Below are positions 5,421-54,299 of a DNA stretch of 61,776 bases, in pieces. A program made the translations under genes and the position numbers. The notes beneath the pieces are model-generated. The model was not told where the DNA came from, searched no databases, and saw nothing but the letters and a program-made list of their open reading frames with translations. This DNA is from Macrostomum lignano (Eukaryota). The stretch covers positions 1 to 61,776 of the forward strand of contig NIVC01004072.1 in assembly GCA_002269645.1 (NCBI GenBank). The letters run 5' to 3'. Each line of letters starts with the position of its first letter. The first letter of the stretch is position 1.

Positions 5421-5978
5421 CGACTTGTCCTATTAATAGTTACTGCGAGTCTGAAGCTGCACCCGTTTGAAAAATTTGATTTAAAGCAGACCAAACAGAA
5501 GCTACAGACCAGAAACCGGTTTTGCAAACTATTCCTAAGCCGACCAACAATGCTAAAGACAATTTATTCAAATGCTAAAATCCAACTTTATCCAGCAGGA
5601 AAACTAACTATATATGGCTGTAAATCAAATTCTCAGATAGTCTCAGTTTTACGATTTATCAACGACACTATTAATTGTGTAGATTTTGATTCAGTAAAAA
5701 TTCAGAGCAGTACCTATGTCGGCTTTATTGGTCATCTTTGGCCAAAATTCGGTTTCTCTAGTCTAAAAAGATATGCAGGCTACTATTCGAATTATCTGGT
5801 TGGATACGATGCAGAAAATTTCCCACAAGCAGTTTCTGTTAGATCAGCATCAAAACCAAGGCTTTTTTGTAACATATTTTTTTCGAAAAAGTTTGTTATT
5901 ATGGGCGTTCAAAACACTCATGAATTGAATAATATTCTTAACCATGTCAAGGATTTTTTAATCTCTGTTAATAACTAA
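5421..5978 (+). CDS. TATA-box binding protein (TBP)-like protein
   Basis: Both TBP repeats are visible: LIVTASL...FDL...IQLYPAGKLTIYGCKS and YDAENFPQ...KPRLFCNIFFSKKFVIMGVQN. The frame stays open back to an acceptor ttttag at 5420, so an upstream exon is likely. Confidence 0.75.
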   Translation, partial: RLVLLIVTASLKLHPFEKFDLKQTKQKLQTRNRFCKLFLSRPTMLKTIYSNAKIQLYPAGKLTIYGCKSNSQIVSVLRFINDTINCVDFDSVKIQSSTYVGFIGHLWPKFGFSSLKRYAGYYSNYLVGYDAENFPQAVSVRSASKPRLFCNIFFSKKFVIMGVQNTHELNNILNHVKDFLISVNN

Positions 5979-6192: not shown

Positions 6193-6915
6193 GTGCACAC
6201 AATGCCGCGTGCACAATGCCAAATCTGCAGAAAAAAGTTCAGTAATCAAGCCGAGCTGCATGCTCACTCGCATGGTGCTTGTTTTTCACCGCAACGATTA
6301 CTGACCGGATCGCTGCAAAACCTGATCGAAAACCCACCAGATGGGTGGTCCATCGCTTTGCGCGAGTCAGCTCATCGTGGTCGGGTAAATTTTGTCGAAT
6401 TTACTCCCACTCTTGAACAACAAGGCAACAGCTCTGGCGAGTTACTTCCTGGCGAGTTGATTGCGTCTTTAAGAGAACCAATATTTAAAATATTGGAAAA
6501 AATTGGCTCACCCAGTTTATTAATAAGAGTCTGCTTTCACTTGAAAGTGACACTATTTCGACCGAAAACAGCAGCAGACGACAACGATGGCTCGAGCAGC
6601 GAAGAGATCATTTCGGTCTATTTTAATACCAACATTGCGACAATATCATTTGATGAGACGATTACAAACAGTGACATGCTGTTATCTCCCGAGGCCTACA
6701 ATGACTGGTTCGCACGCGTTATTAATCAGTTGTTAATAAAAATTGACAATTTTCAATCTCGAGGTAGTAATTGGCAATATAGAGCAATCGAGCAGCTAGA
6801 CTTGATGCTCTGCGTTTATCGCAAAAGCCATGCAAGCACACTGTCAACAAATACGTCCCACGGTGGTGTGGGGGCGGGCGGCGGCAGTGGTGGTGGTGGC
6901 GGCGGTGGTGGTGGT

Positions 6916-6947
<32 letters not shown>

Positions 6948-7290
6948 GCGCGGGGAGTCCGGTCCAGTCCGGTCCGGTCCAGTCCGGTCCGGTCTGGTTA
7001 AGCAGCAATCGTTTAAAGTTCCAGTCTCAATCGGTCGCAAAGCTGGAGCAGTACTGCTTCTAAAGCCGCACAGAGCAGTTTAAAGCATCAAGACTATTTA
7101 AGAGTCTTACACAAGCGACAACTTGTGTTTTCGCGCATACAGTCCATTCGTTCTCGAAAACAGAAAGTTTTTTTTGATGCAACAAAGAAAACTTGCACTA
7201 AGCTTCTTCGATACGAAGCGATCCTGGACAAGTTCAATTAATTCGCTACCCTTTGGACACTGGCACTTGGCTAATTAATTAACAATATGC
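6193..7290 (+). pseudogene. C2H2 zinc finger plus probable pPolB N-terminal region (terminal-protein / vOTU-start-like relic), truncated
   Basis: C2H2-like CQICRKKFSNQAELHAHSH. IDNFQSRGSNWQYRAIEQLDL resembles the GSGW motif at the N-terminus of Polinton pPolB. After two in-frame stops (7081, 7099) the same frame reads SDNLCFRAY, a D-x-x-C motif. No exonuclease or polymerase motifs follow. Confidence 0.55.
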
Positions 7291-8144: not shown

Positions 8145-8588
8145 ATGCCTAAAATATATGTTGTAAAAATGTCTCCAGCGAAAGATCGAGGTTTTAAAAA
8201 GAAAAAGAAGAGCATTCGTAAAAAGAAGAAATCTATTAGAAAGATTAATAAAAAGCAACAAGGTTATGGTGTCGTAAATTGGTTAATTAATCATTTACCA
8301 TTTGAAGCACATTTACCCGGCGGATATCAGTTTTGTGGTCCAGGTACGCAACTGCAAGCTAGGCTAGCAAAAGGACAACGAGGAATTAATCGGCTTGACA
8401 ATTTGTGCATGCTTCACGACGTGGCCTATGATAAAAATTCTGACGTGCAAGAGAGGTTAAAAGCTGATAAGCTATTAGAATCTGGTGCACGAGAGATTGC
8501 CCACGATCCGTCTACTGGTTGGAAAGAAAAACTAGCTGCGAAGTTGGTTACCAAGGTTATGCAAGTTAAGCAACGCTTTGGTGCTTGA
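8145..8588 (+). CDS. Parvovirus VP1-like phospholipase A2-domain protein with basic N-terminus
   Basis: HLPGGYQFCGPGT (Ca-binding loop-like) and LDNLCMLHDVAY (HD catalytic-like). Lys-rich N-terminus. Confidence 0.85.
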   Translation: MPKIYVVKMSPAKDRGFKKKKKSIRKKKKSIRKINKKQQGYGVVNWLINHLPFEAHLPGGYQFCGPGTQLQARLAKGQRGINRLDNLCMLHDVAYDKNSDVQERLKADKLLESGAREIAHDPSTGWKEKLAAKLVTKVMQVKQRFGA

Positions 8589-8590
8589 AA

Positions 8591-9280
8591 ATGCAGCAGC
8601 CATACAATATGCAACTAGCTCACGATTCTACATTTATTATTGCTGGACCTTCAAACTCGGGTAAAACTGAATGGACGTTGCGTTTGTTGACTGAACGAAA
8701 AGAATTATTTGATAAAAAACCGTGCCGTCTTGTTTGGTGCCATGGATCAAGTTTGAAACCAGACGATCAACAACGAATTAGAACATGCTGGCAAAAAAGC
8801 GGTCTTGACCCTATTGTTTTTGTACCCGAATTCACACCACAGATGATTAATCGTTTTTTACCACACGATTTGGTTGTTGTTGACGACTTGCAAAGCGAGA
8901 TTGCTAAGTTGCCAGAATTTACTAGTATGTTTACAAAGCATGCGCATCATATCCCTTTGACTTGTCTGTACCTTTGTCAAGGTCTTTTTAACAAGTCTGA
9001 TCCAGAAGCACGCATGCGAAGTTTATCAGCTAGTTATATTTGTCTAACTCGTAGTGTGCGCGATCGAACCACAGTTGAACATCTCGGTCGACAAATGTAT
9101 CCGCGTAATAGTAGGTTTCTAGTGAATGTGTATGAAGACGCAACAAATAACAAACCTTTTTCATATTTATTCATTGACCTGCGGCAAGTGACACCAGATT
9201 TTTTACGATTGAGAACAGGAATATTTTCTGGTGATGAACAAGTTGTCTATACTCGTGAATGTGATGCAAAGTTTGTGTAA
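8591..9280 (+). CDS. A32-like (FtsK/HerA family) genome-packaging ATPase
   Basis: Walker A GPSNSGKT, Walker B LVVVDD, HH...LCQ sensor region and PFSYLFIDL, all typical of Polinton ATPases. Confidence 0.93.
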   Translation: MQQPYNMQLAHDSTFIIAGPSNSGKTEWTLRLLTERKELFDKKPCRLVWCHGSSLKPDDQQRIRTCWQKSGLDPIVFVPEFTPQMINRFLPHDLVVVDDLQSEIAKLPEFTSMFTKHAHHIPLTCLYLCQGLFNKSDPEARMRSLSASYICLTRSVRDRTTVEHLGRQMYPRNSRFLVNVYEDATNNKPFSYLFIDLRQVTPDFLRLRTGIFSGDEQVVYTRECDAKFV

Positions 9281-11793: not shown

Positions 11794-12954
11794 ATGATGA
11801 AGCGAGTGCGTAAGGAAATTGAAGAATTTTTGACGGATGCTTTTTTTAACTTGAACAGGCCTACTTCATTTAGTGGTAACAAGACTATACTTGTTCGTGA
11901 AGTACGTAAAAAGTTTCCACAGATTACGAACAAAGTTGCAAAGCGCGAAGTTGATAATTGGGTGCGATCAACAAATGAGCATCATTTATTTCGAAAAACA
12001 CGACGAAACTTTCCAACTCCAAAAATTAGTGTGCCACCAGTTGCAAAGTTTCAGTTTCAAATCGATTTGGCAGATTTACCTCAATACAAGACGGAAAATC
12101 GAGGTTATCGTTACATACTTGTTCTTATCGACTGTTTTACTAGAGTTGTACGACTAAGACCATTGCGTACAAAGAAGCCTTCAGAAGTTAGTCAAGTATT
12201 ACTAGAGATTTTTCGAAGTGGTTTTAAGCCTGTTTATTTACAAGGTGATGCTGGTATGGAGTTTCTCGGAAGAGCTACACGTCAAATGCTGAAACAGGAA
12301 GGAGTTCGATTTTTTGTTAGCCAAAGCAATTACAAGGCAAGCATGGCTGAACGATTTATCCGCTCGTTAAAGGAACGTCTATTACGATACTTTCGAGCAA
12401 AAAATTTACCTCGATGGTTTGACATTTTACCGCAATTGGAAGATAATTTCAACTCTAGTCCTCATCGATCCTTGAGTGGAGAAACACCAAAACGGGTAGA
12501 GACAGACCCGCATTTACAAGGAATTTTGTGGGACAAAATGTTTGCGAAGTCGTACACTAAAAAGAATGAGAATAAATTTAAAGTTGGTGATTGGGTTAGA
12601 ATTACACGACGTCGAGGAACATTTGAAAAAGGATACACTACGACTTGGAGTAATTCAAAATATCGCATTCATCGTGTACACTTGACAGACCCGCCAATGT
12701 ACGAATTAGTGGACCCTGAAGATGGATTTGAAGTGCTGAAAGGAAGGTTTAACCAAGCGGAACTAATGTTGGTAAACGAGACAGATGAAACACCTAATGA
12801 AATTGAAAAAGTTATTGAAACTGATCGAGCGAAAAATGGAAGTCGTCTGTATCTAGTAAAATGGAAAGGTATGCCAATCTCAAGAAGTCAGTGGTTAAAC
12901 GAAAATGATCTTGACGCAAAGACTGCTAAACTATTTTCTAAAGTGTATAAGTAA
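11794..12954 (+). CDS. Retroviral-like (rve) integrase with C-terminal chromodomain
   Basis: DDE triad in IDLAD / QGDAGMEF / AERFIRSLK. Chromodomain IEKVI...YLVKWKG...QWLNENDL. Confidence 0.95.
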   Translation: MMKRVRKEIEEFLTDAFFNLNRPTSFSGNKTILVREVRKKFPQITNKVAKREVDNWVRSTNEHHLFRKTRRNFPTPKISVPPVAKFQFQIDLADLPQYKTENRGYRYILVLIDCFTRVVRLRPLRTKKPSEVSQVLLEIFRSGFKPVYLQGDAGMEFLGRATRQMLKQEGVRFFVSQSNYKASMAERFIRSLKERLLRYFRAKNLPRWFDILPQLEDNFNSSPHRSLSGETPKRVETDPHLQGILWDKMFAKSYTKKNENKFKVGDWVRITRRRGTFEKGYTTTWSNSKYRIHRVHLTDPPMYELVDPEDGFEVLKGRFNQAELMLVNETDETPNEIEKVIETDRAKNGSRLYLVKWKGMPISRSQWLNENDLDAKTAKLFSKVYK

Positions 12955-13455: not shown

Positions 13456-14539
13456 ATGAACCATTTGCTTGGACCTGATATTGCTGCTCTTAAAAGTGAA
13501 TTGTCGCTATTTGATCAAAGTCCTGTTCAGTTTAGTGTTTTGGATAATCGATATACTAACATTCAACCGCAACATGGTATTACAAAAGGATCACCTATCG
13601 AATTTGAAGTTGTGCCTGCAGGCGATTTGTATTTGGATCTACAAGAAACTGTGCTCACGGTATGCTTCAGCGTTAGTGATAGTGAAGGTGAACCTATAGA
13701 TGCAACGAAAAATTTTGTTTGTTTGAATAATTTGGTTATTGGAACATTGTTTGAGGACGTTCAATTTACTATTGGCGATACTGTAGTTGAAGGTGGTAGT
13801 TTTATGTATCCATACAAGGCTATGCTTCTTACATTACTGGAATATGGACATACAGCTCAGAAGGCTGGTTTACTGCCGTGGGGGTTTTACAAGGATACAG
13901 CTGGTAAAATGAATGCAACAAGTGAAAACGATGGACGAACAAAGAGGCAGGCGCTCATTGCTAACAATAGGCGGTGCACTGTATCGGGGCCGTTATTCTT
14001 GGATTTGTTTCGTCAGCCTCGGTATCTACTATCAAAGACACCACTACGGATCAAGCTCATACCGGCAAAAAGTAAATTTGTCCTGAGCGGGTCAACATTA
14101 GAAGCTGGTGCGGTTTTAAAAGACTATGAGATCAAGTTTTTGCGTGCAGAACTACGATTGCGGTTTGTTCAACCCTCGCCGAGTGTTATCAGTGCACATG
14201 CTCATGGACTTAAAAGTCACAATGCATTATATCCGCACCGAAGTCTAAGCCTTGGTACGTTTACTATACCCCGAGGATCGTCTAGCCATACGCATGAAAA
14301 TTTGTTTCCTAGTGGGGTACCACGGCTTTTATTGATGGCAATCGTAAGCAACAAGGCATTCAATGGAAGCATGGACACAAATCCGTTCAACTTTGAGCAT
14401 GCAAATGTGAGCAGCATTGGTGTGTTTGTGAATGGAGACTCGGTACCATCGCGTCCGCTGCAGACAAACTTTGGAGATGATTGTGTGACAGAGTATAATT
14501 TTTTGCTACAACAGCTTGGAATCTATCTACAGGGACGAG
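13456..14539 (+). CDS. Major capsid protein (double jelly-roll), 5' part, interrupted by the nested element
   Basis: ELSLFDQSPVQ, PIEFEV, LYLDLQET, LFRQPRYLLS, NPFNFEHANV, typical of Polinton MCP. Prematurely stopped by TAA at 14545-14547 inside the insert. Confidence 0.93.
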
Positions 14540-15770
14540 ACTACTAAGGACTGGTAGATCCGCCCTTTTTGGAGGTGGGGTGGGTGTCAACCCTCCTCGC
14601 CTCTCATTGGCTGGCGCGCGCGCCGCAGGCGCGTGGCGCCATCCAGGCGCCAATTAGGCGCCCATGCCGCAGGCGCACCCTCCCGATATGTACCCCGATA
14701 TGTATGCCCTCCCTCCCGATATGTATGCCCACCCTCCCGATATGTACCCCGATATGTATGCCCTCCCTCCCGATATGTATGCCCTCCAGAGCAGCAGGCG
14801 CCCATGCTGCAGGCGCCCATGCCGCAGGCACCCCGAGTGTACACTCTCGCGATATGTACACTCTACCACTCTCCCGATATGTAAGATATCTAGTCAGCGA
14901 TATTAGGCTAGTGAAAACTACTTATAGTAGATGAAATTGCGTATATTTACATAAAAAGTAGATAAAACATATTGGTAGGTGTGAATAATGACGCATAATA
15001 CATATTGGACCATATGAGCAGCAAAAACACACAATGTAGGTGCATGGGCAGAAATAGACAAAGCAGGTACTGTAGGCGCTACATAGGTGGAAATACACAC
15101 AGTATATTGCACACACTCTAGATTCCAATTATGTAGGTGCATACATACACACAATGTAGGTGCAAATTGAGTATAATACAAGAAAATTACATAGCATATA
15201 ATGTAGGCGCATTTTAAACGATACATTTTTGCATAATAACCCGCAGGTACAAATTTCAGTGCATAGGATAAAATACACACACTGGAAGTTAAGTATAATA
15301 CAACATATGTATGCAAAATTAAGCATATAATGTAGGTGCAAAGTAAAATATCCAGCCCAGGATATTCGAGACACGCCCCCAGAGCCAGGGCCGGGGGATC
15401 CCAATGTACAGTGCGGGCGGAGTAACATAGAGAAATTCCTCCCCAGGGCCGGGGGATCCCAAGTACAGTTCAGGCAGAGAGCATTCCAATCCTCCCCAAA
15501 TGGGGGGTTATCAAGGACCCCTCACATTGCACAGGGCGGGCAGAATAACAGACCGCATACAAATAGGGGTTTTAGCGGATCCCAAGTACAGTGCGGTCCC
15601 GGGTGTCAAATGATGCCCCAATGTACAGTGGAGGTAGAGTAACAGACCGCATACAAAGAGAATTCCAGTCAAACTTTACAGCACCTCCCACGGGGCTTTA
15701 GTGGATCCCCAGAGGGTAGCTCTCCAAGTTGAGGGATCCCCCCGTGTGTTGCGAGGCCCAAGTACAATGC
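14540..15770 (+). repeat. Left TIR of nested element (~1.23 kb)
   Basis: Reverse complement of about 21641-22994. The mirrored spurious ORFs 14918-15316(-) and 22190-22552(+) are near identical. Confidence 0.93.
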
Positions 15771-15873
15771 GGGTGTAAAACCATTTTCATCCCCACGAGT
15801 CAAGGGATCCCAAGTGGGCACATAGGGGAATCCCAGGCAGGGAGGCGTAAAAAGACAGATCCTTATCTTTCAC

Positions 15874-18800
15874 TCACTCCCGAAAGCCATACGGGCGGCT
15901 AGCAGCCCCATACACCCTCTTAGTCATTACGCGCTGGAAAGTCTTGTCCATCTCGAGGGTCCGGATTGTACAGCTAGCCTTATCGCGCCTGAACTGGGCC
16001 TGGGGCAGGCGTACAGTCCCGCCGTGACGCAGAATTTCCTGCAGCTCGTCCTCGCGCTCGGAAATCTCGGGGGTGACTCTGATGCCCTTGCACTTGAGCA
16101 CCGAGTACAGCGACCCGTCGGGCTTCTCCACTAAGTACCGGTAGAGCTTGGGGCCTCCCGTGGTGAACTGTACCATGCGGCAGCCAGCAGGTACCTCGTC
16201 AGTCCACTGCCCCAAACTCGAACCGCCCGGAGGCTCGTACTCGCCCGGGGAGCAGCGGTATACAACCCTGGGAGAAGGAGGAGAATAAAGTGTTAAGGGG
16301 AGAAAGAGAGACAGAGACAGTGAAAAAATTACTTACGAATCGGTATCGGCGTAAATGACTCGGGTTCCTAGGCCCTCCAGAGCCTCGTAGAGTCGCAGCC
16401 GGGCGTGGGAGGTGGTGAAAACGCCAATAGGTACATTAGCGTACTTGAACGCCCGCTCGCCAGCACCGCCAAATCGGGGCTTGTACTCGAGCATCATGAA
16501 GCTCTCCCCAATTGGCTCGCACGACTTGACCTTGATCGAGGGTCGGTCAGGCGCTGCAGCCACGCCTCGTAGCTGTCCACAATCTCTGTGGAGGTCAGGT
16601 CGTCGCGCTGGCAGAATTTGCCCCAGAGCCTGCAGGGAAAAATAAATTTTTTTTTGTAAGTAGAAAAACACGGCCCCCACTGCAAGTAGAAAAAACTTAC
16701 GAGTTTAGAAAAATCTTGGCCACAAAGCGCAAGCCAGGATTCTCCTCCACCTTTTCCAGCCGGACGCCTTCGCGCTCGAAAAAGCTGGCCATGTAGGCAG
16801 CCTTGGCGTCCTCAGCCATCCCCGGCGAACCGCTAGACTCGGCTTTGAGCTTCAAAAAAGTGTTTACATAATCTGCAAACAGACCCGTGCGAGTCTCGGT
16901 CCAATAGGCCAGGGCATGAACTGACTGCAGCTTGTAACCCAACTGCAGGGCTTTGTGGAGCTCTGGGGTCGACCACGTGCCGCGGAGCATTCTCTCAGCG
17001 TCAGTGTGTGTACACTCGCTGCTGCACTGGGTCTCCATGCAGACGCGGCAGAGGCCGAAAACCAACTTCTTGTTAATCTTGGCGGGCAGTAGCGGGATGT
17101 GGAGATTGGTTGGCGGCAGAATTGACACCTCGGCGATGCCAAAATACCGGGCCAGCTGCAGCTCATCCAGTAGATGAGGCTCGGGGTGGTGTACCGGGTG
17201 CCCGACCGGGTACTTGTCAAACTTGTTGACAGTCGGGTAGAGCGACACCTAGGGGATAAGGATAAGATAAACTCAAACGCATGTCAACTGTGTGTGTACA
17301 AGTGTACAAACTTACCACATCCCGATAGCGCAGCTCTACAGTCTCGGTGGCCTCGGCGTGCGGGACAAAAGCCTCGGTACGGCCGCCAAACAGGGCTTCC
17401 TCCAGGCGAATAGGCTGCTGGACTGGCGCTCCCTCGTCCTGATAGTCGTGCTCCCACAGAACACGCACATTGTATGCAGTGGAGAGCAGCCGGGTGAAGC
17501 GCTCGGTCTCTTCATAAATTGCCCGCATTGGCTGGTTCTTGAGCGGGTGCAGCACGTCGCCGTTGGGGAAGCACTTGGGACAGCCATGGAAGAAACAGCC
17601 ATGAAACTGCAGCACTGTCCTGGTCTCTGGGTCGAAGCCGTCGACCTTACGGCCCATGGCGAAAGCCTCGCCGCCAGAATCGGCTGTCCTCAACCGGCCG
17701 CCAAACTCGGTTGCATTTAAATGTGCCAGCCAGCACCGCGCCTTGTGCGACTGTACATCCGATCGGCGGGAAATCACCCCAAGAGTGTTGGGCTCCATAA
17801 ACTTGGTGGTGAATACCGACATGGCCAAGCCCGCAATGGTGTTGGATTGGACAAATGCGTCCAGTCCGCAAATGTCCTTAATCAGGCGGGCATATTTCAG
17901 GCAGCCTTCCCGCAAAATTAACGTGTCCTGCAGGCAATAGTCCAGGTACGCCTTATTAAAATTAAACACCTGTCCCTCCTGCTTGGCCAGCCAGTCGGCG
18001 ATGGAGTCATGCTGCTTATTCTTCTTCCCGCCGTACATATCAATTGAGCAGTAGGGACCGACGTACCCCCAATTTTGAGGCTGATTGAACACGTGCGGGA
18101 AATCTCCTTTGGTCAGTTGGGTGCCCAAACCAAGCGCCTTTGGGAATTGCGCCAGACCAATAGGGATGAAATTGAGGCTGTCCTTGAAGGTGATCTTGTC
18201 GCACTTCATGTACATTAGGCGGCTGTTCTGGAAGATCACTTGCGGCTTCTTCTTGGCCAGTCCGTTGAGTAGGGCGCCGAGCAGGAGGAATGCGTCATAC
18301 GCAGAGCCATTGTGCGCAATTGCAATTGCCCCCTGCTTGAACACACTAGTCAGCCAGCAGTAAAAGGCATCGATAGAGTGCGGCCCAACCGAAACAAACT
18401 CTCGCATCCCACAGGCACAGTCATTGTGCGAGACACAGCTCGTAAAATCCAGCGCCAGATTGCGTCCCGCAATGCAATTGGCTGAGCTGTGTAGTCCCCC
18501 GCACGCGCTGCAGCGGGGCCTGGGGAAGAGTTTGGGACACGCCTCGCAGGAGGTGGCAGCCGTAACCAAGTGTACCCGGTGCTGCTTGTCAGAGTCCAAG
18601 TACGTCTCGAAATCATAGTAAACATACGGGGCGCTAGACTCTTTGGCTTTGGGCGGGGTGACAAAGCACTCGTGGGTGGCAGTTTCGTCGTACTGCTTGC
18701 AGACTGGGCACTTGGCATAACCACACTGATGCTCAGGGGGCTGGCCTACTTTTAGTTCTTCTAGATAGCCACACGTGCCGCAAACGTGGACCGAATCACA

Positions 18801-20677
18801 GCGCGATCTGCCCGCCTTATTCTTGCGCTTGTGATTTTCTAGGCACTGAGCATTATAGCAATTTAGCCCGCAATCATGGCATCTTACATATGCGCGGTTT
18901 GCCTTACAGTTGGAGCCCGGAGTCTTGCATGTACTGCAGGCATCAGCGCACTTGTGCTTCTCATAATTGCAGTCGTAGGCCATCTCGCACTTGGGGCAGT
19001 AGTGATCGGAGCCGAAAAACGCAGGCAGCTTGGTGACCACATTAAAGTGCTGCTCGACCAGGTGTAGGTGCAGAATCTCGGTGCCAGGCAGGTTGAAGAT
19101 GCACCTGTTGGCCTCCTCTGCGCGGTACACGCGTACACCAAAATCGCGCCCCGGATGCAGCCGGTTCAGGGCACGGATCGCTTCGGGCAGTGCATCCACG
19201 CCGAAAGGACCAGCCTGCGAGACGGTTTGAAGAGTCTGTGTGGAGGGTAAAATATTTCTTTTAGTGTTCCTTATCGTAAAATTTCTTATCAGAAAATTTT
19301 AGTATTCCATGATACTGTGTAAAAATCTTATCAGAAAATATATCTTTTAGTATTCCATGATACTGTGTAAAAATCTCATCAGAAAATATTAGTATTCCAT
19401 GATACTGCGTAAAAATTCTTATCAGAAAAATACTAGAAACTTACCGTGTAGAGGCCTGCCTCGATTTGTAGCTCAGCCACCAGCTTAGTCTGCGTGGGCG
19501 AATTGGCCTTGATCGTGCGCCACACCTTCTCGGTGATGGACTTGGCCACGAATTGCAGGTAGGCGCAGGCCACGACCAGAGCGCGCAGCAGGCATCTCTT
19601 GTCCGAGTTGGTGATGCGGACATAGTGCTTTGAAAAAGCGTGCCTCTCTTCTAGATGCCTGTTCTCGAGAGCACATCCACCTCGAGGTACCCAGGCTTTT
19701 AGCAGACGGATAGAAAAGTTGCTCGACAGTACGCTTGCGTCTGACTGCACAATCTTGTCAATGTGCTTAAACAACAATTCAGCCGTCATGCGGGCTGCAC
19801 GCACCGGGGGAGTGTGGGCCGCTTTGAGCATGTTGTCGCTCTCGAATTTCGCGGCCATAAAGTCATCACCAGCCAAATCTTGCTTGAAAACTTCGAGCAT
19901 GTCGGCAAACACCTCCCGCAAATCTTCGGTGTTGGTAATACGCACCACATACTCGACACCCTTTGCCCTAAACTTGGGCAGGTCGCGTTGATTATCCAGC
20001 CGGGCCGTAAAACCTGCATGGGGGAATGGGGGAGTGTGAGTCAGCCAGGGTCTGTGTGGGAAATGGGGGGCGGGATAACTCACCCGGTCCGGTAACAGAT
20101 TCCGGCTGTGTTGGCGGGACAAACGCGTCTGAAAAAACACAAGGAGATAAAAAACCAGAAGAATCTGTCATTTTCCTGGCCCCAGCGTGTTTCCCCGCCC
20201 TAGCCCCAGCAATTTCTTAACAGAGTTTACTCTGCTGTCCCCGCAGCAACTCTCTGCAATTTCTTATCTGCACCCCCGCTGCAGCCTGTCGCAGCAGTCT
20301 TTGTTTACTCACCCCTGCAACTCTCTGTCGCAGCAATTTGCACCCCAGCTGCAGCCTGTCTGGACAACACCCCCTAGCAGCAATTTCTTATCAGCACACA
20401 CCCGGCTGTAACTTGTCTAGCCCTCCCCTGCAACTCTCTGTTACAGACCCTGCCGCAGCACCCCACCCTAGCAACTCCAGTCTAGACCCCTGCAGCTGTC
20501 GCAGCAGTCTTTGTTGTTTACTCTGCGGTCCCACAGACCCTGCAGCTGCTGCTGCTGCTCAGCCCCTACCCCCACCCTAGCAACTACAGTCTAGACAGAA
20601 ATTAATTAAAACTTACCATAAAGACGTTGCCTCTTGTCAGCCAGAAAAGCAGTTGCGTTGGCGCTGCGTTTAGCCAT
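15874..20677 (-). CDS. Protein-primed family B DNA polymerase (pPolB), 7 exons, ~1276 aa after one 1-nt correction
   Basis: Exons 20617-20677, 20084-20128, 19445-20013, 17316-19235, 16701-17248, 16337-16629 and 15874-16267, all GT-AG and phase compatible. vOTU-like SDKRCL...EQHF. ExoI YYDFET, ExoII AHNGSAYD, ExoIII YCLQDT. Vsr-like insert KVDGFDP...FHGCFFHGCPKC. Motif A DV|VSLYP, motif B KIFLNS|LWGKF, motif C YADTDS|VVY, then KCKGI. Exon 6 is 293 nt, one short, with a frameshift at GGG 16540-16542. Confidence 0.95.
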
Positions 20678-20751
20678 TTTGCAAACAGAGAGCGTGAGAG
20701 AGCGAGCGGAGAGAGAAGGATTATCTCTCTACCCTGGCTCTGGGGGGTCTG

Positions 20752-20874
20752 TATATATACTAAAAAATCTGCTCAGCTCGCCTGTTATTGGTCAATCGCC
20801 AAAAACCAACCAAAATCATCAAAAATCACCCCCAAAATCACCACCCACCCCACCCTCCATCCGGGGGTATATAA
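20752..20874. promoter_or_regulatory. Putative bidirectional Pol II promoter between pPolB and the PC4-like gene
   Basis: TATATATA at 20752-20759 (~75 bp upstream of the pPolB ATG), TATATAA at 20868-20874 (~50 bp upstream of ATG 20924), and ATTGG between them. Confidence 0.6.
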
Positions 20875-20923
20875 GGCGCTGCACGGCTGTTAGAGAGCTC
20901 TCTGCTGCTGCTGCTGCTAAATC

Positions 20924-21421
20924 ATGTCTTCTATCTCTCTATACGAAAACTTTGTGGCGCGGAAGCCCACATTTGAAACTGAACACAACTTGATTGAAAT
21001 TCGGCGTCTCTACACCAACGAGGCCGGAGTGTGGAAGGACGGCTTCCCTGCAATCTACTTGAGCGAGCCAGAGTGGAAGAAGCTCGAAGCTGCGCGCCCT
21101 GACCTGGAGGCTGCTGCCCGCCTTCACGTGAACAAGCGGGTCCTGTTGGGCAATTTCAAGGCAGTTGAAGCTTCGCGAGGGAGGATCCGTTTGCTGCGCA
21201 ATTGGCTCAATCAGGACCCAAAGTTTAATTGGCGCTACACGATCGAATTCACGCCTGAACTGTGGCGCAGGATGTTTGCCGCCCGTTTGGACAAGCTCTT
21301 CAAGCCGGCACCTGAGGCACCCCCTCCAGCCAAGCGAGTCAAGACAGAGGACAATCTGCAGGACTGCCTTGACAGCATCAAACCCTACCCTTGGGGAAAT
21401 CTGTTTGACGAGGGTTGCTAA
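20924..21421 (+). CDS. Tandem PC4-like ssDNA-binding protein
   Basis: Two PC4-like repeats: IEIRRLY...GVWKDGFPAIYLSEPEWKKL and IRLLRNW...YTIEFTPELWRRM. A possible further GT-AG intron starts at 21463. Confidence 0.65.
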   Translation: MSSISLYENFVARKPTFETEHNLIEIRRLYTNEAGVWKDGFPAIYLSEPEWKKLEAARPDLEAAARLHVNKRVLLGNFKAVEASRGRIRLLRNWLNQDPKFNWRYTIEFTPELWRRMFAARLDKLFKPAPEAPPPAKRVKTEDNLQDCLDSIKPYPWGNLFDEGC

Positions 21422-21640
21422 TTGAGGCGTGCCGCATCCGTACAGCGCGAACCCGATTTTTGGTAAGCTTAATTTCATATAAATCGTATATAAATTACAT
21501 ATAATCTGTCTACATTGAATATTTTTTACTTTGACAGATGTTTCGAGAGCGCTGATGAGGAGGAGACTGCCCTGGCTGAAGATCGCGCTCGAGTTTGACT
21601 GATAAGGGAATTTCTCTTTGTACTCTGTTACTCTCTGCAT

Positions 21641-22994
21641 GCACTGTACTTGGGCCTCGCAACACACTGGGGGGATCCCTCAACTTGGAGAGCTACCCTC
21701 TGGGGATCCACTAAAACCCCGTGGGAGCTGCGGTAAAGTTTGACTGGAATTCTCTTTGTATGCGGTCTGTTACTCTACCTCCACTGTACATTGGGGCGGG
21801 ATCCTTCCTCATTTAACACCCCGGAGCGCACTGTGCATTGGGGGGCGGGATTCCTTCATCATTTGACACCCGGGAGCGCACTGTACTTGGGATCCGCTAA
21901 AACCCCTATTTGTATGCGGTCTGTTATTCTGCCCGCCCTGTGCAATGTGAGGGGTCCTTGATAACCCCCATTTGGGGAGGATTGGAATGCTCTCTGCCTG
22001 AACTGTACTTGGGATCCCCGGCCCTGGGGAGGAATTTCTCTATGTTACTCCGCCCGCACTGTACATTGGGATCCCCCGGCCCTGGCTCTGGGGGCGTGTC
22101 TCGAATATCCTGGGCTGGATATTTTACTTTGCACCTACATTATATGCTTAATTTTACATACATATGTTGTATTATACTTAACTTCCAGTGTGTGTATTTT
22201 ATCCTATGCACTGAAATTTGTACCTGCGGGTTATTATGCAAAAATGTATCGTTTAAAATGCGCCTACATTATATGCTATGTAATTTTCTTGTATTATACT
22301 CAATTTGCACCTACATTGTGTGTATGTATGCACCTACATAATTGGAATCTAGAGTGTGTGCAATATACTGTGTGTATTTCCACCTATGTAGCGCCTACAG
22401 TACCTGCTTTGTCTATTTCTGCCCATGCACCTACATTGTGTGTTTTTGCTGCTCATATGGTCCAATATGTATTATGCGTCATTATTCACACCTACCAATA
22501 TGTTTTATCTACTTTTTATGTAAATATACGCAATTTCATCTACTATAAGTAGTTTTCACTAGCCTAATATCGCTGACTAGATATCTTACATATCGGGAGA
22601 GTGGTAGAGTGTACATATCGCGAGAGTGTACCCTCGGGGTGCCTGCGGCTCGGTAGAGTGTACACTCGGGGTGCCTGCGGCTCGGTAGAGTGTACACTCG
22701 GGGTGCCTGCGGCATGGGCGCCTGCAGCATGGGCGCCTGCTGCTCTGGAGGGCATACATATCGGGAGGGTGGGCATACATATCGGGGTACATATCGGGAG
22801 GGTGGGCATACATATCGGGAGGGAGGGCATACATATCGGGGTACATATCGGGAGGGTGCGCCTGCGGCATGGGCGCCTAATTGGCGCCTGGATAGCGCCA
22901 CGCGCCTGCGGCGCGCGCGCCAGCCAATGAGAGGCGAGGAGGGTTGACACCCACCCCACCTCCAAAAAGGGCGGATCTACCAGTCCATAGTAGT
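21641..22994 (-). repeat. Right TIR of nested element (~1.35 kb)
   Basis: Reverse complement of 14540-15770, with extra internal repeat copies at about 21795-21855 and 22630-22700. Confidence 0.93.
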
Positions 22995-23000
22995 GACGAG

Positions 23001-23239
23001 ATATTGGATTTAATATGCTGGATTACGCCAATGGTTACTCAATTTTTGCATTCAGTCTTGGAAGTGAACCTGGTGTCGGACGGGGAGTGCAACTGTATAA
23101 GGAAGGAAATGTAAAACTAGAGTTACGCTTCAATGCTGCAACTAGTACCGTGTACAACGTCATATTTGGAGGTATATTTGACAAGCAACTGCAACTGACT
23201 GAACTTCGCGACATTGTTCCTGGCACAGTATGGAAGTAA
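23001..23239 (+). CDS. Major capsid protein, 3' part
   Basis: DIGFNMLDYANGYSIFAFSL...GNVKLELRF...IFDKQLQL continues the MCP frame once the insert and one TSD copy are removed. Confidence 0.92.
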
Positions 23240-23793
23240 TTGATTCTATCCTAGATCGTGGTGTAACAGATCGCTTCCTTCGCAATGTTGTATCGAAATT
23301 GTGCGCACATTTTTTAAATGTTGTATTTCTTGGTGTTTTTCCTCAAAACTTTGTTGGTGGACTTAGACGCTTACCTTTAGACGGTAAAGACTATTTTTTT
23401 ATCGTTAATACTGACGTCTCCAACCTGCCCGGAAAACATTGGGTATGCGTTTGGGTTTATGGTCATCGAGCAGGTCGCGGTAGCAAACGACTTGGTGAAT
23501 ATTTTGATTCTCTTGGTCTAGTACCATTGCCAAGAATAGCAAAATGGCTAGGAAAAGAATGTGGAAATTCGAAAAATTGGTGTTATAGTCGCTTTGCTAT
23601 CCAAGACCCACAGAGTGGAAGTTGTGGATTTTGGGTAATTTTTTATATTTTTCATAAGTTGACTACCAGAGGAAACCTAGAGTGTTTTATTCGAAGCGTT
23701 TTAAAACGGAATATAATTCGCACTGGTTCGTTTCGATACTTGTATGCTAAATTACGCAATTTTGTTTTACGAGTGCTGCCTCAATATTTGTAA
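23230..23793 (+). CDS. Adenain-like cysteine (maturation) protease
   Basis: VNTD...GKHWVC (His), EYFDSLG (Asp) and IQDPQSGSCG (Gln/Cys). Confidence 0.92.
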   Translation: MEVIDSILDRGVTDRFLRNVVSKLCAHFLNVVFLGVFPQNFVGGLRRLPLDGKDYFFIVNTDVSNLPGKHWVCVWVYGHRAGRGSKRLGEYFDSLGLVPLPRIAKWLGKECGNSKNWCYSRFAIQDPQSGSCGFWVIFYIFHKLTTRGNLECFIRSVLKRNIIRTGSFRYLYAKLRNFVLRVLPQYL

Positions 23794-24031
23794 ACTCGCT
23801 AATTTGTGCGTCAAATTGTGTTTGTATCTAGTTGAAATATACAATACTGCTTGAAAAGAAGAATTTAAATGCGTTAAGTTATACGCGAAATAAGCTTTGT
23901 GTCAAATTGAATTTTGGTTGGGCTTGTAATTAGCTGCATTCATTGCGGATAGAATTTAGGTGGATAGACAGGTGGTGTTTGCGTAAAAGTGATTCAGCTA
24001 ATTGGTTAATTCATTGCGTAAAAGCTAGTTT

Positions 24032-24134
24032 GCGTGCACGGCAAATTTCAGACTCTGCCATTTTTTTGGGCCTGTACTTACTATGTATTTCGCCATAAGG
24101 AAATCGGCTTTGTGTCAAAAAAACGTATACTACT
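24032..24134 (-). repeat. Right TIR of outer Polinton
   Basis: Reverse complement of 942-1044. Confidence 0.95.
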
Positions 24135-24543
24135 GATGTGTCACGGTACAAGTCGCTAAGAAACTCATCAAATAGACGCCTTAAAAGTCAGTTGGAGGTT
24201 TCTCCAAAGCGGATAGCGAATAGTAGCGGATAAGCGGATAACTATCCAAAGCGGATCTCCACTGTGAAGCCCGGCTGCTCCGCGTCCGACAGCATAAGTG
24301 CCTCCTTTCGCTCCAGTTTAAACTTCGTACCAAGTTTAAACGGTGACCCACCTGTTCAGCTGCCCCGCAAACCCGACACCCACATAACAGCTGTCTGTTA
24401 TGCGAGATTTATGAGCCAAGTCGATCGAGGTGTCCGCTTCTTTGGAATCGGCCGCCCTACCGACAGGCGGAGACCCCGGCCATGTGTTAATACGCACAGT
24501 CGTTTGAGTTGTTACTTGTTTGAATTAGAAATAAATTACTTAC

Positions 24544-26230
24544 TTATGCAGCAAAGGCGGCGGCACAACCAGAATCAGTAGCTGACCATTTTCGTGCATG
24601 TCTTCCGCAAGGTGCCTAACAAAATGCGCCAATTCTTTGTTCCTGTGGCCGCCAAGCATCGACCAGACCTCAAGCACGGCGCCGTCGAAGCTGTACTTCT
24701 TTAGAAAGTTCACAACAGTCTGAGCGCAGCCGTTAGCCACGTATTGATTGGTTAGCAGCCGGTGAAAATCTTGCGAAGTCCACGACTCAAAAATAATGCG
24801 CGGCACAATGGCAACCTTGCGGGCGGACTTGACAGAACGAATCCAGCCTGCGAATTTCAAAGAAGCAGACAAGTAAATGCATGTATATTACATATTGTGA
24901 TAACAACATACATGTAGCAGCAGTCAAAAGCTTGCCTTTAAAGCGCAAATATCTATGGAGTAAAAAGGCGTCGGTTCTAAGATATCCAGGACAGGCGGAG
25001 GACAAAATCGACTAAACATCAGGACAGGACAGATGGTTTACACAGTCCAACAAACATCAGGACAGATAGAAGACACGATTCACTAAACACAGGGCAGGTG
25101 GAGGATACAATCCACTAAACACCGGGCAGGTGGAGGACACAATCCACTAAGCACAGGGCAGGTGGAGGACACAATCCACTAAACACAGGGCAGGTGGAGG
25201 ATACAATGCACTAAACACAGGGCAGGTGGAGGACACAATGCACTAAACACAGGGTAGGTGGAGGACACAATGCACTAAACACAGGGCAGATGGAGGGCAG
25301 AATGCACTAAACACAGGGTAGGTGGAGGACACAATGCACTAAACACAGGGCAGATGGAGGACAGAATGCACTAAACACAGGGCAGGTGGAGGACAGAATG
25401 CACTAAACACAGGGCAGGTGGAGGACAGAATGCACTAAACACAGGGCAGATGGAGGACAGAATGCACTAAACACAGGGCAGATGGAGGACAGAATGCACT
25501 AAACACAGGGCAGATGGAGGACAGAATGCACTAAACACAGGGCAGATGGAGGACAGAATGCACTAAACACAGGGCAGATGGAGGACAGAATGCACTAAAC
25601 ACAGGGCAGGTGGAGGACAGAATGCACTAAACACAGGGCAGATGGAGGACAGAATGCACTAAACACAGGGCAGATGGAGGTCACATCAATGAAATGCAGT
25701 GACTCACCCTGGTCAATGTCGTGGTCGCCAGTGATGACAAAACCTGTTTCAGACTTTCCTGGCCTCAGCTGCAGCCAAACAGGCGATACAAATGAAAACT
25801 TTGGTCCAAACGTTTTTGCATGATCATAGCCTTTTGAGTTCCACTGTGGGTTAATTAGTACCAAAAGTCACAATAAAGTTTACACTTTTAGCAGAATAGA
25901 ATAACCAAATGAGCTCACAGGTGTTACATAAGCCAGAGTAGCCAGTGGGAATAGTTTAGTCTTGGCGTGGGCATGTGAGTAGGACAAGTGATTGTGAAGA
26001 ATGTCCTTGTAGCTTGGATTCTCGGTAACAAGGTTGCGTTGGGTGACCAGTGAATCAGCTGGAGGCACAGTCTGAATCAATAAGATTGAATGATTTTTTG
26101 TTTTAACATTTAAACCATGACCAATGAGTTATTGCAAATTTAAAACCATGCAAATAAAATACTCATACCACATCCACTGTTGACTTCTTTTTCTTCTTGT
26201 CAGTCTTTGACAAAGTTGAGTCAAGTTGGG
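24544..26230 (-). CDS. CHID1: CHID1 upstream exons (approx. 26169-26230, 25919-26071, 25708-25843, 24544-24847)
   Basis: The exons splice at GT-AG sites to give ...TLAYVTP|WNSKGYDHAKTFGPKFSFVSPVWLQL...HDIDQG|WIRSV...IVPRIIFESW...FDGAVLEVW...LILVVPPP, typical of CHID1. The phase-2 donor below 24544 matches the acceptor at 624-626, giving AA|C CAA in frame. Confidence 0.88.
25080..25680. repeat. 32-bp minisatellite in a CHID1 intron
   Basis: Unit ACAGGGCAGATGGAGGACAGAATGCACTAAAC. Confidence 0.92.
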
Positions 26231-27420: not shown

Positions 27421-28311
27421 GTAGGGGGTGACCAGGATGGCCAAAGTCGGGCCCAGGTCAGGCCCGGGAATGAGGACTCGGGCCCGGATCGGGCCTTGGG
27501 AATTTGGGACAAGATCTTTAGGACAGCTCAATAATTGGAAAAAAATCATAATAAATCTTAATACTTTTAGCATATGCTGATTACTATTAAATATATAATA
27601 TATATATAATATATATATAATAAATATATGATAAACATTAAATATATTATAATATATAAATATATTAAATATATAATAATATATAAATATATTAAATATA
27701 ATATATATATAATAAATATTATTATTATTTAATACATTAGTTAAGACTTCAGAATAGATTAGAGTTACATTAAAAGACTTAATACTCAAAATATCAATAT
27801 ACTCAATAGTTCAAATTCAATGTCACTATGTGGCATAAGTACTATATGTGTGCCAGTGACAGTGACACTAATAGGCAGTGAGGTAGGCAAGCAGGCACTG
27901 CGGCAGTGCGGCTGGCACTGGTAGTGGCAGTAAGCAAAAAGAAGAAAAGCTGAAACATTAAGTGTAAGGCACTTGGCATTGGAAGCAGTAAGGAAGTAAG
28001 AACCAAATCAATTGATTGATTCTTTTATTTGAATTTTTAGTTCCTTTACATAGCTTCAATATAAAGAGCCATGTACACAGTCAGTATTCAGTAAGACAAC
28101 AAGACAAGACAAGGCTGGAATTAAAGGTAAATTAGTGTGAATGTGTTGAAAAATAATTTTATTCTTATTTGCACGCAGTTAGTGCCTTTAGGGAAAAAAG
28201 ACGTCCCGATTTCCCGACTTTTTTAGGGTTGGGCCTAGGCCTGGGTCAGGCCACGATTTTGGTCGGGATTCCTGACTTTTTGGGCCCGGGCCCGGGACTG
28301 GGTCGCCCCCT
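27421..28311 (+). mobile_element. Non-autonomous TIR element, copy A
   Basis: Begins GTAGGGGGTGACC and ends GGTCGCCCCCTA. Both arms are homologous, in reverse orientation, to 30303-31436. No coding capacity and no clear TSD. Confidence 0.55.
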
Positions 28312-30302
28312 ATTTGGGGGTCTACTTGGCTATAAATATAGAGCATCTGCAAGCCATTTTTCTCCAGATCGTGTCGTCCAGCCTGGGTTCAACTGGAGCT
28401 GCCTCTTTGCCTCCAAGCTCTCCTCTCATTTCAGGTTTTTTAGGTTTTCAGGTTTGAGCAGCATTCCACTAAGACGATCGACTGTCCAGACATTTCCAGA
28501 TTTGCCTTTGCTACGAGCAACTTTGTTATTTTATTTCAGGTGATGGATAGACAACTCTGCGACGCCTCGAGTTTGCACACCAAGGTGGCAGCAACCCTAC
28601 CAAGTAAAGGCTAACGTTTTAGGTTCAATTTCAGGCAAATCGATAGGTAGTACAATGGTACTATCTAGCTACTTCCGGAGCAGCGAGGTCTAACTTAGGA
28701 ACATCTTAAAGAACTTGGGAAGGAGCAACACACAAATGAGTAACTGGCTGCAATAAATGTATGAAATAATTGTGGTAAATGACTGTGCTAGACCAATGAG
28801 CCAATAAAAGTTGCCCATAAATCTTGGCTGCATTGTGCCCTATCCCCCTAAAGGGTATAAATGATACTTCTCTAAGCAACACTTGAATGCACATCCATGA
28901 TTTTTTGTGCAGCAAAGAGGCAACAAAAAGCAATGAAGCTAAAGCCCAGTGCAAAATTCTGCTGCTTCAAAAGTTTTATGATTCTCAAGTTTTTCCATAG
29001 ATATCTCTTTGTCACAGTAGCCTAACAAAGAATTCTGAGTGCACTCAAGCAAAAGTACTTTCACTACTTTCTACTAGCTTGTTGAAAAACTATAAGTCAA
29101 TGGCAAAGTCTGTGCTACATTTCTGTTTATAATTCTTGCATCTATTGTCTGTTTTACAAGATATTAGAATTAATATGAAAAAGAGAGTTGCTATTATAAA
29201 TTTGTAAATTATTTTTTTTCTAAAATATTAATAATCTATGATAATCTTGTATAACTAGTAGCACAACAATTGCCTGTACACAACTGCCTGCACTATAACT
29301 GCCTGCATGACAACTGCCTGCACAACAACTGCCTATGCAACAACTGACTACACAATTCTAAATCAACAGAAACTATTTGTTACTACTACAGTACATTGGT
29401 TTATTTAGTTATTAACTTGAACAAAAGCAATAGGGAACACACACACACACACACACACAAAGTTATTGCCACAGGCATTTGTTGCACAGTTGTCTCAGCA
29501 GTCTATTGTCATTGCAAGCAGTTGTCATTCAAGCAGGTATCATGCAAACAATTGTCATTCAGGCAGGTGTCATGCAGGCAGTTGTCATTCAGGCAGTTAT
29601 TATGCAGGCAATTGTCATGCAGGCACTTGTGTGCAGGCAATTGTTGTGCTACATTTTTAAACATGTTCAATTATATAGGCATACCAATTGATTTCTTTAT
29701 CTATGAGTACATTAGATGATATCCATATAGACTTATTTACTTTATAGAGAAATGAATCAAATAAGCTAGGCCTAATTTAAAGGATTTTTTAGGCTAATTT
29801 AGATATTGGATACAAAACAAGGCATAAATCTATACCTAAAAAATCAAAACTCTGTGTATATCTCTGTCTGTCTTATTAAGTATAAATAAACAAGTAACAA
29901 AATAATTTACATTGTTAAAATCTTTGACATTTATGATTTGCTTTTTTAGTATATATAGCAAATAGATAGGCTTAGCCTAGATAGCCAAGTTTTTTATATT
30001 TATTTATAACCTAAAAAAGCTAAATAAAACAATTGAGCAAGATATTTCTTCTTGATTGATAGCATAAGCCTAATGTCTAAGCAATAGTGTCAATAATGTT
30101 AAAGTTTCAACTTTCAATGTAAAGGAAGCTTTTGATATCAATATGATAATTCAATGTGAGGGAAAAATTGGGGACTCAAGCAACAAAGACAGAAATTTTT
30201 GACACTGAGCCTTATATGCATATTGGGATTGAAATAGGAGGGGGGCTAAAGTTAAGATATATCTTTTTACTTTCAATATAAAAGTAGCTCCTAAGTAAAG
30301 AT

Positions 30303-31436
30303 GACCCAGTCCTGGGCCCAGGCCAAAAAAGTTGGGAATCCCGACCAAAATCGTGGCCCGACCTTAAAAAAGTCAGGAAATCGCGACAACTCTTTTTTCC
30401 CTAAAGCCTAAAGGCACAAACCGCGTGCAAATAAGAAAAAAATTATTTATTAAATTTATTTATATTGATATAGTGCCTAAGAAGTAACAACTATTTTATG
30501 CACGAATACGGTATTTCTTAGAAAGCTTTTATTCAATTTTGCACGAAAAACTAAATATTTTGTTTAAACGTTGTGATCTGCAAAAATAATTTCGGAAATT
30601 ATTATTTTGTTAAAATTTACGCCGAAAAAGTGTATAAATAGGAGCCCAGATTGGGCCAGGAAAAATAAACCGCGAATCGCTTCGCTTAGCTTCAACTCGT
30701 TTCGTGTTCGTTTGCTGCCTCTTGGCTTCAGATAAGCAAACCTAGAAATCGTTACTCGCAGTATTTTAAAGACTTAGTTATTTGCTAAGATTGAAATCCT
30801 CACATTGAGAGTCAGAAATCCGCTAAAAGCGAGAATCGCCTCAGGGTAGGAAAGTGCTATATTCGCCTCAGGGCAGAGGAATCGCTTCAGAGCAGGAATA
30901 AACGCCTCAGGGCAGAGATTTCGCTTTAGAGCTGTGACCCTCTGATCCCGGGAACGCCAGGACTGAGAGAATAATATCTTTAGAGGAATATAGAAATAGA
31001 ATAGACAGTGCTATTAGACCGCTCAGGCCAAAAAGTACAATAGAAGTACATACGCTACCAATAGAAGTACATGCGCTACCAGTAGAAATACAATTAAAAT
31101 TAACAACCAGTAGAATTGTTAAGGAGAAATAGCTTTGTAACAACTTTGGTTACAGCGGTAGGATTTTGTATCGTACGGGAACACCCCTACGACAATATTT
31201 ATATTTATTATATATTTAAAATATATTATATTATTTTTAATATATTAATATATTTATTATGTATTTAATAGTTATCCACACATGCTAAAAGTATTAAGAT
31301 TTATTATGATGATTTTTTCCAATTATTAAGCTGTTCTAAAGATCTTGTCTCGAATTCCCAAGGCCCAACCCAGGCCTAAGTCCTCATTCTCGGGCCCGAC
31401 CCGGGCCCAACTTTGGCCATCCTGGTCGCCCCCTAC
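30303..31436 (-). mobile_element. Non-autonomous TIR element, copy B (inverted relative to A)
   Basis: 30303-30447 mirrors 28151-28304, and about 31195-31436 mirrors 27421-27720. Confidence 0.55.
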
Positions 31437-38399: not shown

Positions 38400-39830
38400 G
38401 CGGTGCTTAATCTGGGGAGTGGTACTAATCTGGGAGAGTGGTGCTAATCTGGGGGAGCGATGCTAATCTGGGGAGTGGTGCTAATCCGGGGGTGGTGCTA
38501 ATCTGAGGAGCGGTGCTAATCTGAGGAGCGGTGCTAATCTGGGGAGCGGTGCTATTCTGGAAGAGTGGTGCTAATTTGGAGCAAAGTGGGGCTAATCTGG
38601 GCTGAGGTAGTGCTAATCTAGGGGAAGGGAGTGGGGCTAATCTGGAGGGAAGTAGTGTTAATCTGGGGAGTAGTGCTAATCTTGGGGTCAATAGTGCTAA
38701 TCTGTGGGGAGTTAGTGCTAATCTGGGCTGAGGTAGTGCTAATCTCGGGGAGGGGAGTGGGGCTAATCTGAGGTGAGGTAGTGCTAATATGGAGCAAATT
38801 GGGCTAATCTGGGGGAGTAGTGTTAATCTGGAGGGGGTGGGGCTAATCTGGGCAGAGTGCTGATTTTGGGGTAAGTGGTGCTAAACTTGGGGGTGAGACT
38901 TGCTAATCTGGGCGGAGTGCTAATCTGGAAAGGAGTTGTGTTAATGTGGGGGATTAGCACTAATCTGGAAGAGTAGAGCTAATCTAGAGCAAAGTGGGGC
39001 TAATCTGGGGTGAGGTAGTACTAATCTGGAGAGCGAAATGGGGCTAATCTGGGGTGAGGTAGTGCTAATCTGAGGGAGCGAAATGGGGCTAATCTGGGCT
39101 GAGTCCTAATCTAGAAGGGAGTTGTGTTATTTCGAGGGAGTAGCGCTAATTTGGGAGAGTAGTGCTAATTCAATAATGCTAATTTGGAGAAGTGGTGCTA
39201 ACCTGGGGGAGGAGAGTCTAATCTGGGGAGTAGTGCTAATCTGGAGGGGAACTTGGGAAAGTAGTGCTAATCTGGAGGGGAACTTGGGAAAGTAGTACTA
39301 ATCTGGTGGAGTAGTGCTAATCTGGAGAGGAGTTGTGTTAATTTGGGGGATTAGCGCTAATCTGGGGGAGTAGAGCTAATCTGGAGCAAAGTGGGGCTAA
39401 TCTGGGGTGAGGTAGTACTAATCTGGGGGAGCGAAATGGGGCTAATCTGGGATGAGGTAGTGCTAATCTGGGGGAGCAAAATGGGGCTAATCTGGGGTGA
39501 GGTAGTACTAATCTGGGGGAGCGAAATGGGGCTAATCTGGGTGAGATAGTGCTAATCTGGGGGAGCGAAATGGGGCTAATCTGGGGGGAGGTAGTGCTAA
39601 TCTGGGGGAGCGAAATGGGGCTAATCTGGGCTGAGTCCTAATCTAGAAGGGAGTTGTGTTATTTTGAGAGAGTAGCTCTAATCTGGGAGAATAGTGCTAA
39701 TTCAATAATGCTAATTTGGAGAAGTGGTGCTAACCTGGGGGGGAGAGTCTAATCTGGGGGAGTAGTGCTAATCTGGAGGGGAACTTGGGGAAGTAGTGCT
39801 AATCTGGCGAAGTAGTGCTAATCTGGGGAG
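38400..39830. repeat. G-rich degenerate satellite (core GCTAATCTGGGG)
   Basis: Dozens of variant units. Confidence 0.9.
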
Positions 39831-41345: not shown

Positions 41346-41466
41346 CTTTAACGCCCTGTAGCAAAAGTCCCCCTGGTGATGACGCCCCCTGCTCGCTGTT
41401 TATCTACTTTTGAATTCGGCACTCTCAGACTCGCTTATCTCCTCTGCACTGCAGCCAACTGTCGGC

Positions 41467-44532
<3,066 letters not shown>

Positions 44533-44619
44533 TCGATTCATAAGCAATTTGCTGAGCTCTTGATTGCCAAGTTTTGAGTCCCTAAAGCACAAGAATAGAG
44601 AAATCCGTGACTCCACTAT

Positions 44620-49050: not shown

Positions 49051-49239
49051 CGGCAAAGTTATAATTAGCATAGAGTTTAGATCAGCAACTTTGCATGGTC
49101 TCAATTACTACTTGCAGTAGTTGAAACAGATATTTCAATAATTGATTACTACCATCCCGCCCCCTCCCAATTGAATTTTCAGCGCGCCAGCTGCACCAGC
49201 TAAGCAAATTTGACTGCCATCTAAACTCTAGCAAGCTAA

Positions 49240-54299
<5,060 letters not shown>

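Follow-up and report, generated by a model that had tools for sequence, protein, structure and literature searches.

A protein-primed polymerase element with ACTACT…AGTAGT ends in the capsid gene of a Macrostomum lignano Polinton

Polinton/Maverick elements have been described with three end motifs, (AGT)2//(ACT)2, (AG)3//(CT)3 and (AC)3A//T(GT)3, the last of them from Monopterus albus, and these motifs have been tied to jump-back priming (PMC8097293). Among the AC-type M. albus rows in the supplement of that study, 9 of 14 have exact target-site duplications (TSDs) of 6 bp, and 3 of 14 contain all eight genes, including the integrase (PMC8097293). General background is given elsewhere (PMC10175614, PMC2836005, PMC4046053, PMC3014272, PMC6431247). 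Here we analyze an element of Macrostomum lignano that starts with ACTACT and finishes with AGTAGT. It occupies positions 14540-22994 (8,455 bp) of contig NIVC01004072.1, whose 61,776 nucleotides we call the window, and it lies inside a larger Polinton (942-24134); we refer to the two as the inner and the outer element. The inner element encodes a family B DNA polymerase of the protein-primed type (pPolB) between long terminal inverted repeats (TIRs), and its gene content, rather than its ends, sets it apart.

It is useful to compare the inner element with its closest described counterparts. AC-type Mavericks of M. albus share with it 5'-AC…GT-3' ends, a short terminal repeat, a 6-bp TSD and pPolB, but their repeat is a dinucleotide instead of a trinucleotide, and several copies have integrase and capsid genes (PMC8097293). 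All 14 of these copies are termed defective in that source, whereas the inner family shows splice joints and a synonymous bias. Polintons/Mavericks with pPolB2 or Alpha PolB likewise combine a PF03175-type polymerase with long TIRs and a 6-bp TSD (10.1101/2023.08.22.554363; PMC8502044); the inner element differs from them in having spliceosomal introns and in lacking integrase, capsid, ATPase and protease genes. Capsid-less Polintons have already been described (PMC4405056), and repeat-bracketed replicase modules are known to nest in related viruses, the pPolB cases being consistently paired with an integrase in the section that treats them (10.64898/2026.10.13.758929, section 13). Capsid-less Polintons and such polisuvirus-nested modules resemble the inner element in being replication modules with their own repeats, sometimes inside another element (PMC4405056; 10.64898/2026.10.13.758929). 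The inner element resembles a Polinton replication module and stands outside the Polintons by its lack of an integrase and of virion genes. Linear pPolB plasmids are cytoplasmic or organellar and do not integrate with a TSD, whereas the inner element is chromosomal and spliced. Fungal and mitochondrial plasmids of this kind are otherwise similar to it, with pPolB, TIRs and neither capsid nor integrase (PMC4405056).

Ends, target duplication and empty site

The original prediction placed ACTACT…AGTAGT termini and a 6-bp duplication at 14540-22994, and both were borne out by the end sequences, the TIR alignment, the flanks and an empty site. The left end at 14540 reads ACTACTAAGG, and the right end, inward from 22994, reads ACTACTATGG. 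The left TIR (14540-15770, + strand, with tandem-repeat tracts at 14676-14833) aligns with the right TIR (21641-22994, − strand, showing its AGTAGT end on the + strand) over positions 1-1231 and 1-1354, respectively, with 12 mismatches and 10 gaps that are concentrated in the tandem-repeat tracts. At 1.2-1.35 kb, these TIRs fall within the 100-1500 bp of long Polinton/Maverick repeats. The flanks are identical, with GACGAG at 14534-14539 (extendable by one base to 14540) and again at 22995-23000; this gives the 6-bp TSD of a Polinton, and a 7-bp reading fits as well. At fixed ends, a 6-bp flank match has a probability of 2.9e-4 by chance. Only the 14540/22994 boundary yields symmetric ends, with perfect (ACT)2 on both sides under the 6-bp reading. 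An unbiased scan for TIR and TSD pairs over positions 1-25000 returned two elements only, the inner and the outer.

We compared contigs from public sequencing runs with positions 15780-24400, using 4 of 24 listed runs (including X4, X2, X12 and X16). A contig departed from the window at exactly 22995 in all four. In X4, the one run in which the loose letters were read, the sequence beyond this point is the left flank, ending at 14533. Since this contig joins the left flank directly to 22995, the target is present once in the empty site, and GACGAG was therefore duplicated at insertion. The empty site is compatible with both the 6-bp and the 7-bp reading.

The insertion interrupts the major capsid gene of the outer Polinton. 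Alignment with intact capsid homologues places residues 1-364 on the 5' piece (13456-14539, + strand) and residues 363-442 on the 3' piece (22995-23239, + strand), with an overlap of 2 residues. A capsid homologue that is 66% identical folds as a double jelly-roll (DJR).

How should these ends be classified? The (ACT)2 repeat, seen in one copy, follows the short-repeat pattern of Polintons yet lies outside the three published motifs. The ACT end corresponds, as a trinucleotide, to the AC-type motif, and AGT corresponds to AG in the same manner. In the published Maverick table, the 27 of 712 ACTACT entries that were examined all stand in the 3' column, with no 5' ACTACT among them (PMC8097293). 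A literature search whose coverage excluded subscription journals and Repbase listed neither ACTACT-starting Polintons nor Polintons of M. lignano. ACT would join AG, AGT and AC as a fourth end motif, which suggests that what stays constant at Polinton ends is an initial A and a short repeat, the second base being free.

A distinct replicon class with 6-bp TSDs had also been proposed. Three parts of this proposal stand: pPolB belongs to a replicon of its own with separate TIRs, the 3-nt terminal repeat fits jump-back priming, and the duplication is of 6 bp. The GT-3' ends do not mark a new class, because Mavericks of the swamp eel (M. albus) have already been reported to combine AC…GT ends and 6-bp TSDs. 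The inner ends had further been presented as reverse-complementary to the outer ones; this relation proved uninformative, since ACT and AGT differ at one base and the appearance follows from that alone. Inner and outer TIRs have 8 of their first 30 bases in common, no matching stretch between them exceeds 9 nt, and we rejected homology or inversion as a link between them because the TIRs are unrelated.

Two further observations concern the inner TIRs. Over the terminal 600 bp (22404-22979), the summed depth of X4 and X2 exceeds that of the interior, and joints within the TIR skip 336-350 nt; together these hint at shorter derivatives. Compared with shuffled sequences, the initial 161 nt give a better fold (z −3.5); a GC-rich palindromic tract accounts for this, and we made no use of the fold.

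Genes and relatives of the inner element

The polymerase gene is an intron-containing pPolB (PF03175) at 15874-20135 on the − strand, with no first exon assigned. Its motifs, Exo I-III, SLYP, KxxxNS and YADTDS, lie in separate pieces, so that the family match and the catalytic motifs of a Polinton/Maverick polymerase are both present. It also contains CLLRA and FHGC, which we take to be OTU-like and VSR-like motifs, an assignment with no family hit behind it. One relative, P0016, is named a VSR protein by its source, and a VSR insertion characterizes the marine pPolB2 subgroup.

Four GT-AG introns on the − strand, at 16630-16700, 17249-17315, 19236-19444 and 20014-20083, correspond to joints found in X12 and X16, which come from two studies, and absent from X4 and X2. 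A fifth, probable GT-AG intron at 16268-16336 (− strand) is proposed from the sequence alone; a repeat at this position was passed over when joints were listed. From the GT-AG pattern and the absence of the joints in two other runs, we infer that they represent spliced RNA. Against this, the run types are guesses only, 'DNA?' for X12 and 'RNA?' for X16.

The second gene, at 20924-21421 on the + strand, encodes a PC4-like single-strand DNA-binding protein, which in gene models is extended by a small 3' exon (21539-21595). Its family match is weak (E 0.034), and it has a score of 0.91 with 10/10 family hits. Among the 92 inner open reading frames (ORFs) of at least 55 aa, Pfam matches at E 0.001 occur in two, both of them pPolB, and none of the 92 has an integrase, capsid, ATPase or protease match or resembles a transposase. 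Searches by tblastn with four integrase queries and with the outer major capsid protein, ATPase and protease gave no match inside the inner element at E 1. Consequently, the rve integrase and the capsid, ATPase and protease module of Polintons are both missing, as is the pairing of pPolB with a DDE transposase that marks a transpoviron-like module (2026 preprint).

The inner family is multicopy. The proteins nearest to its own are gene models in UniRef under the label Macrostomum lignano, comprising 13 polymerase records, about 57-98% identical, and 5 PC4-like matches. One of them, P0007, has its pPolB within a host ADAM-protease gene model and thus represents an inner-family copy at another locus. 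Another, P0158, covers the window's own locus and is therefore not independent; it is a chimera that joins the inner genes to glycosyl hydrolase 18-like exons. Contig depth, which is no measure of copy number, decreases from inner to outer element to host flank (in X2, about 106-1123 at listed positions, 159 and 19.9). No other relative exceeds about 40% identity, except for a short Logan fragment at 60%. In a FastTree phylogeny (61 rows, 629 columns, loci without a single ORF across the region omitted), the window polymerase joins P0008 only, on a long branch, and its placement is not well resolved.

Competing explanations

We favor, with some reserve, the explanation that the inner element is a multicopy, self-replicating Polinton derivative that has been reduced to a replication module between long TIRs and is integrated in trans by a Polinton integrase. 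From what is established for Polintons and adenoviruses, the 3'-TGATGA strand would be the template on which a terminal protein primes with dAMP, and a three-base jump-back would follow. Priming and jump-back of this kind would make the (ACT)2 repeat the origin. The PC4-like protein may serve as a single-strand binding helper, and a Polinton-type rve integrase supplied in trans would insert the linear copy and produce the 6-bp duplication. No obligate partnership with the outer family would be presumed.

The polymerase element is apparently selected. Of 30 coding differences, 25 are synonymous, against an expected 23% that takes no account of transition bias; with 3 non-coding ones, these are 33 of 40 differences chosen by support from 533, the 7 outside the modelled inner genes being omitted. 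The selection of these differences and the simple expectation both weigh against our explanation, and so do several other points. The direct repeat around the element stretches to 7 bp (14534-14540 and 22995-23001), so that its boundary is free to slide by one base. The ends and full gene content are known from one copy, and no second inner-family insertion with ends was found at the inner terminus among the 24 loose ends listed (488 more exist). This copy has frame breaks in pPolB near 16.5 kb and 20.0 kb. Finally, gene models are unable to show that other copies are without an integrase.

The foremost rival, which we consider unlikely, is an ordinary deletion derivative: a complete AC-ended Polinton would exist in the genome, and the inner element would be an internally deleted member moved by the parental integrase. 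Most vertebrate Mavericks are indeed degraded, and one M. albus AC-type copy of 7.5 kb has no capsid genes (PMC8097293). Moreover, close pPolB relatives on long contigs often adjoin integrase or capsid genes, and the divergent polymerase subfamilies P0008, P0012 and P0013 may have such genes around them. However, the inner element is a compact two-gene cassette placed directly between its TIRs, and the same neighborhood of PC4 region and polymerase recurs in P0006. None of the 12 M. lignano pPolB models scanned has an integrase or capsid domain. The strong synonymous bias also speaks against this rival, as do the introns, since intact vertebrate Mavericks are described as intronless (PMC8097293).

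Somewhat less likely still is a bipartite system in which each family supplies what the other lacks: the inner family has a polymerase and no integrase, the outer family an integrase and virion genes and no polymerase core. Their gene gaps are reciprocal, the outer copies look young (a 1.1-kb outer stretch in X2 shows a single difference, plus 3 gaps), and the inner element is physically nested in the outer one. Since each end type has A as its first base and repeats a 3-nt unit, a shared polymerase and a shared integrase might suffice for the two. In its full form, which we regard as unlikely, this would be a split Polinton in an animal genome: a replication satellite with ACT ends and introns would depend on an integration and virion module with AGT ends and no polymerase, and the latter on the former, with one integrase accepting GT-3' and CT-3' and one polymerase copying both origins.

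The outer element does retain an ORF (6202-7083, + strand) like the N-terminal part of adintovirus and MELD PolB-type proteins. Its predicted fold (single-sequence model, pLDDT 71) matches an adintovirus C2H2 protein at E 1.3e-7 and a MELD-virus PolB at E 2.8e-4, and a PDB fold search returned nothing at E 0.001. The ORF continues into a G-rich tract that gene model P0163 shares. No polymerase core follows it or lies elsewhere in the outer element, and the window copy thus has no complete pPolB. When longer forms were sought among 762 candidates, 1 was returned; it is a chimeric model that shares the low-complexity tract downstream and contains no polymerase domain, which is weak evidence.

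Against complementation, the TIRs are unrelated, and the polymerase gap is read from the window's outer copy alone (the 5-8 kb region). The dominant outer contigs are empty at the inner site and at least one inner copy sits in a host gene, so the nesting may be due to chance; the window was, besides, chosen for being nested.

It is improbable that the ACTACT end is mis-set or peculiar to this copy, through a 7-bp duplication with a left end one base shorter or through an unrelated cut-and-paste transposase: the longer direct repeat, the visibility of ends in one copy and the stated 5-8 bp of Polinton TSDs (10.1101/2023.08.22.554363) would allow it, but symmetric ends arise under the 6-bp reading alone, 6 bp is also the length in the outer element and in published Mavericks, and no inner ORF is transposase-like.

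A 2023 nematode survey took in integrase-linked polymerases only, with single matches of at least 650 aa (10.1101/2023.08.22.554363), and therefore could not have listed the inner type. More broadly, our work points to a kind of polymerase element, spliced and without an integrase, that surveys anchored on integrases overlook by design. Polymerase swaps have been reported between groups of Polintons, and satellites of this sort would offer one way for them to occur. In addition, since the outer integrase is intact and the genome holds two natural end types, the integrase's end specificity is open to direct test.

The outer Polinton, related contigs and host sequence

The outer element (942-24134, + strand, AGTAGT…ACTACT) has 104-bp TIRs (96%) and starts at 942 with AGTAGTATAC between GATGTG flanks on both sides; in X16, another flank is joined at its end at 24134. 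With an integrase, a DJR capsid, TIRs, a 6-bp TSD and (AGT)2//(ACT)2 ends, it is a Polinton. Its ORFs encode dUTPase, PLA2-like, ATPase-like and pX proteins, an rve and chromodomain integrase, capsid and protease. The integrase frame (11794-12954, + strand) is open, with D-D-E contexts present. The PLA2-like and P-loop ATPase-like ORFs lie at 8145-9280 (+ strand); Walker A was recognized from the sequence in the latter, which has no A32 Pfam match. A C5-like protease at 23230-23793 (+ strand) is a weak match (E 0.026). PLA2 and chromodomain-integrase features have been described before (PMC8502044). A TBP-like ORF lies at 5550-5978 (PF00352, E 2e-7), and TBP also occurs in the capsid-bearing locus L048.

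In viral contigs, a single-exon polymerase query found no relative and an alignment query found 42 loci, 0 of which have paired terminal repeats around the polymerase. In metagenome contigs, a 22-nt terminal pattern had 0 matches, and no polymerase was enclosed by TIR and TSD among the best 80 of 425 loci plus L043. One contig (L120:1-13696) is a complete-looking Polinton with integrase, ATPase, protease, capsid, pPolB and 502-bp TIRs; its AC…GT was read at contig ends that are possibly clipped, and we did not count it as an AC…GT-ended example. L075, L076, L093, L103, L069 and relatives form a well-supported pPolB clade; no integrase or capsid match lies near these loci, some have RING or PLA2 ORFs as neighbors, and their flanks are rich in repeats. 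We dropped this 'polymerase only' clade as a relative of the inner element, given PLA2 ORFs near L088, L103 and L113 (of which L103 alone is in the tree) and a link support of 0.2.

Host sequence adjoins the right end of the outer element, with glycosyl hydrolase 18-like exons at 24543-26071 (− strand). Further inverted-repeat pairs lie at 27421-31436, 28146-30453 and 32957-33976, with arms 89-97% identical and no duplication at the boundaries tested. Beyond them, long minisatellite arrays with units of 19-44 nt are numerous at 38400-56200, where they surround an RRM exon (41467) and two exons of pyruvate kinase (49249 and 53163).

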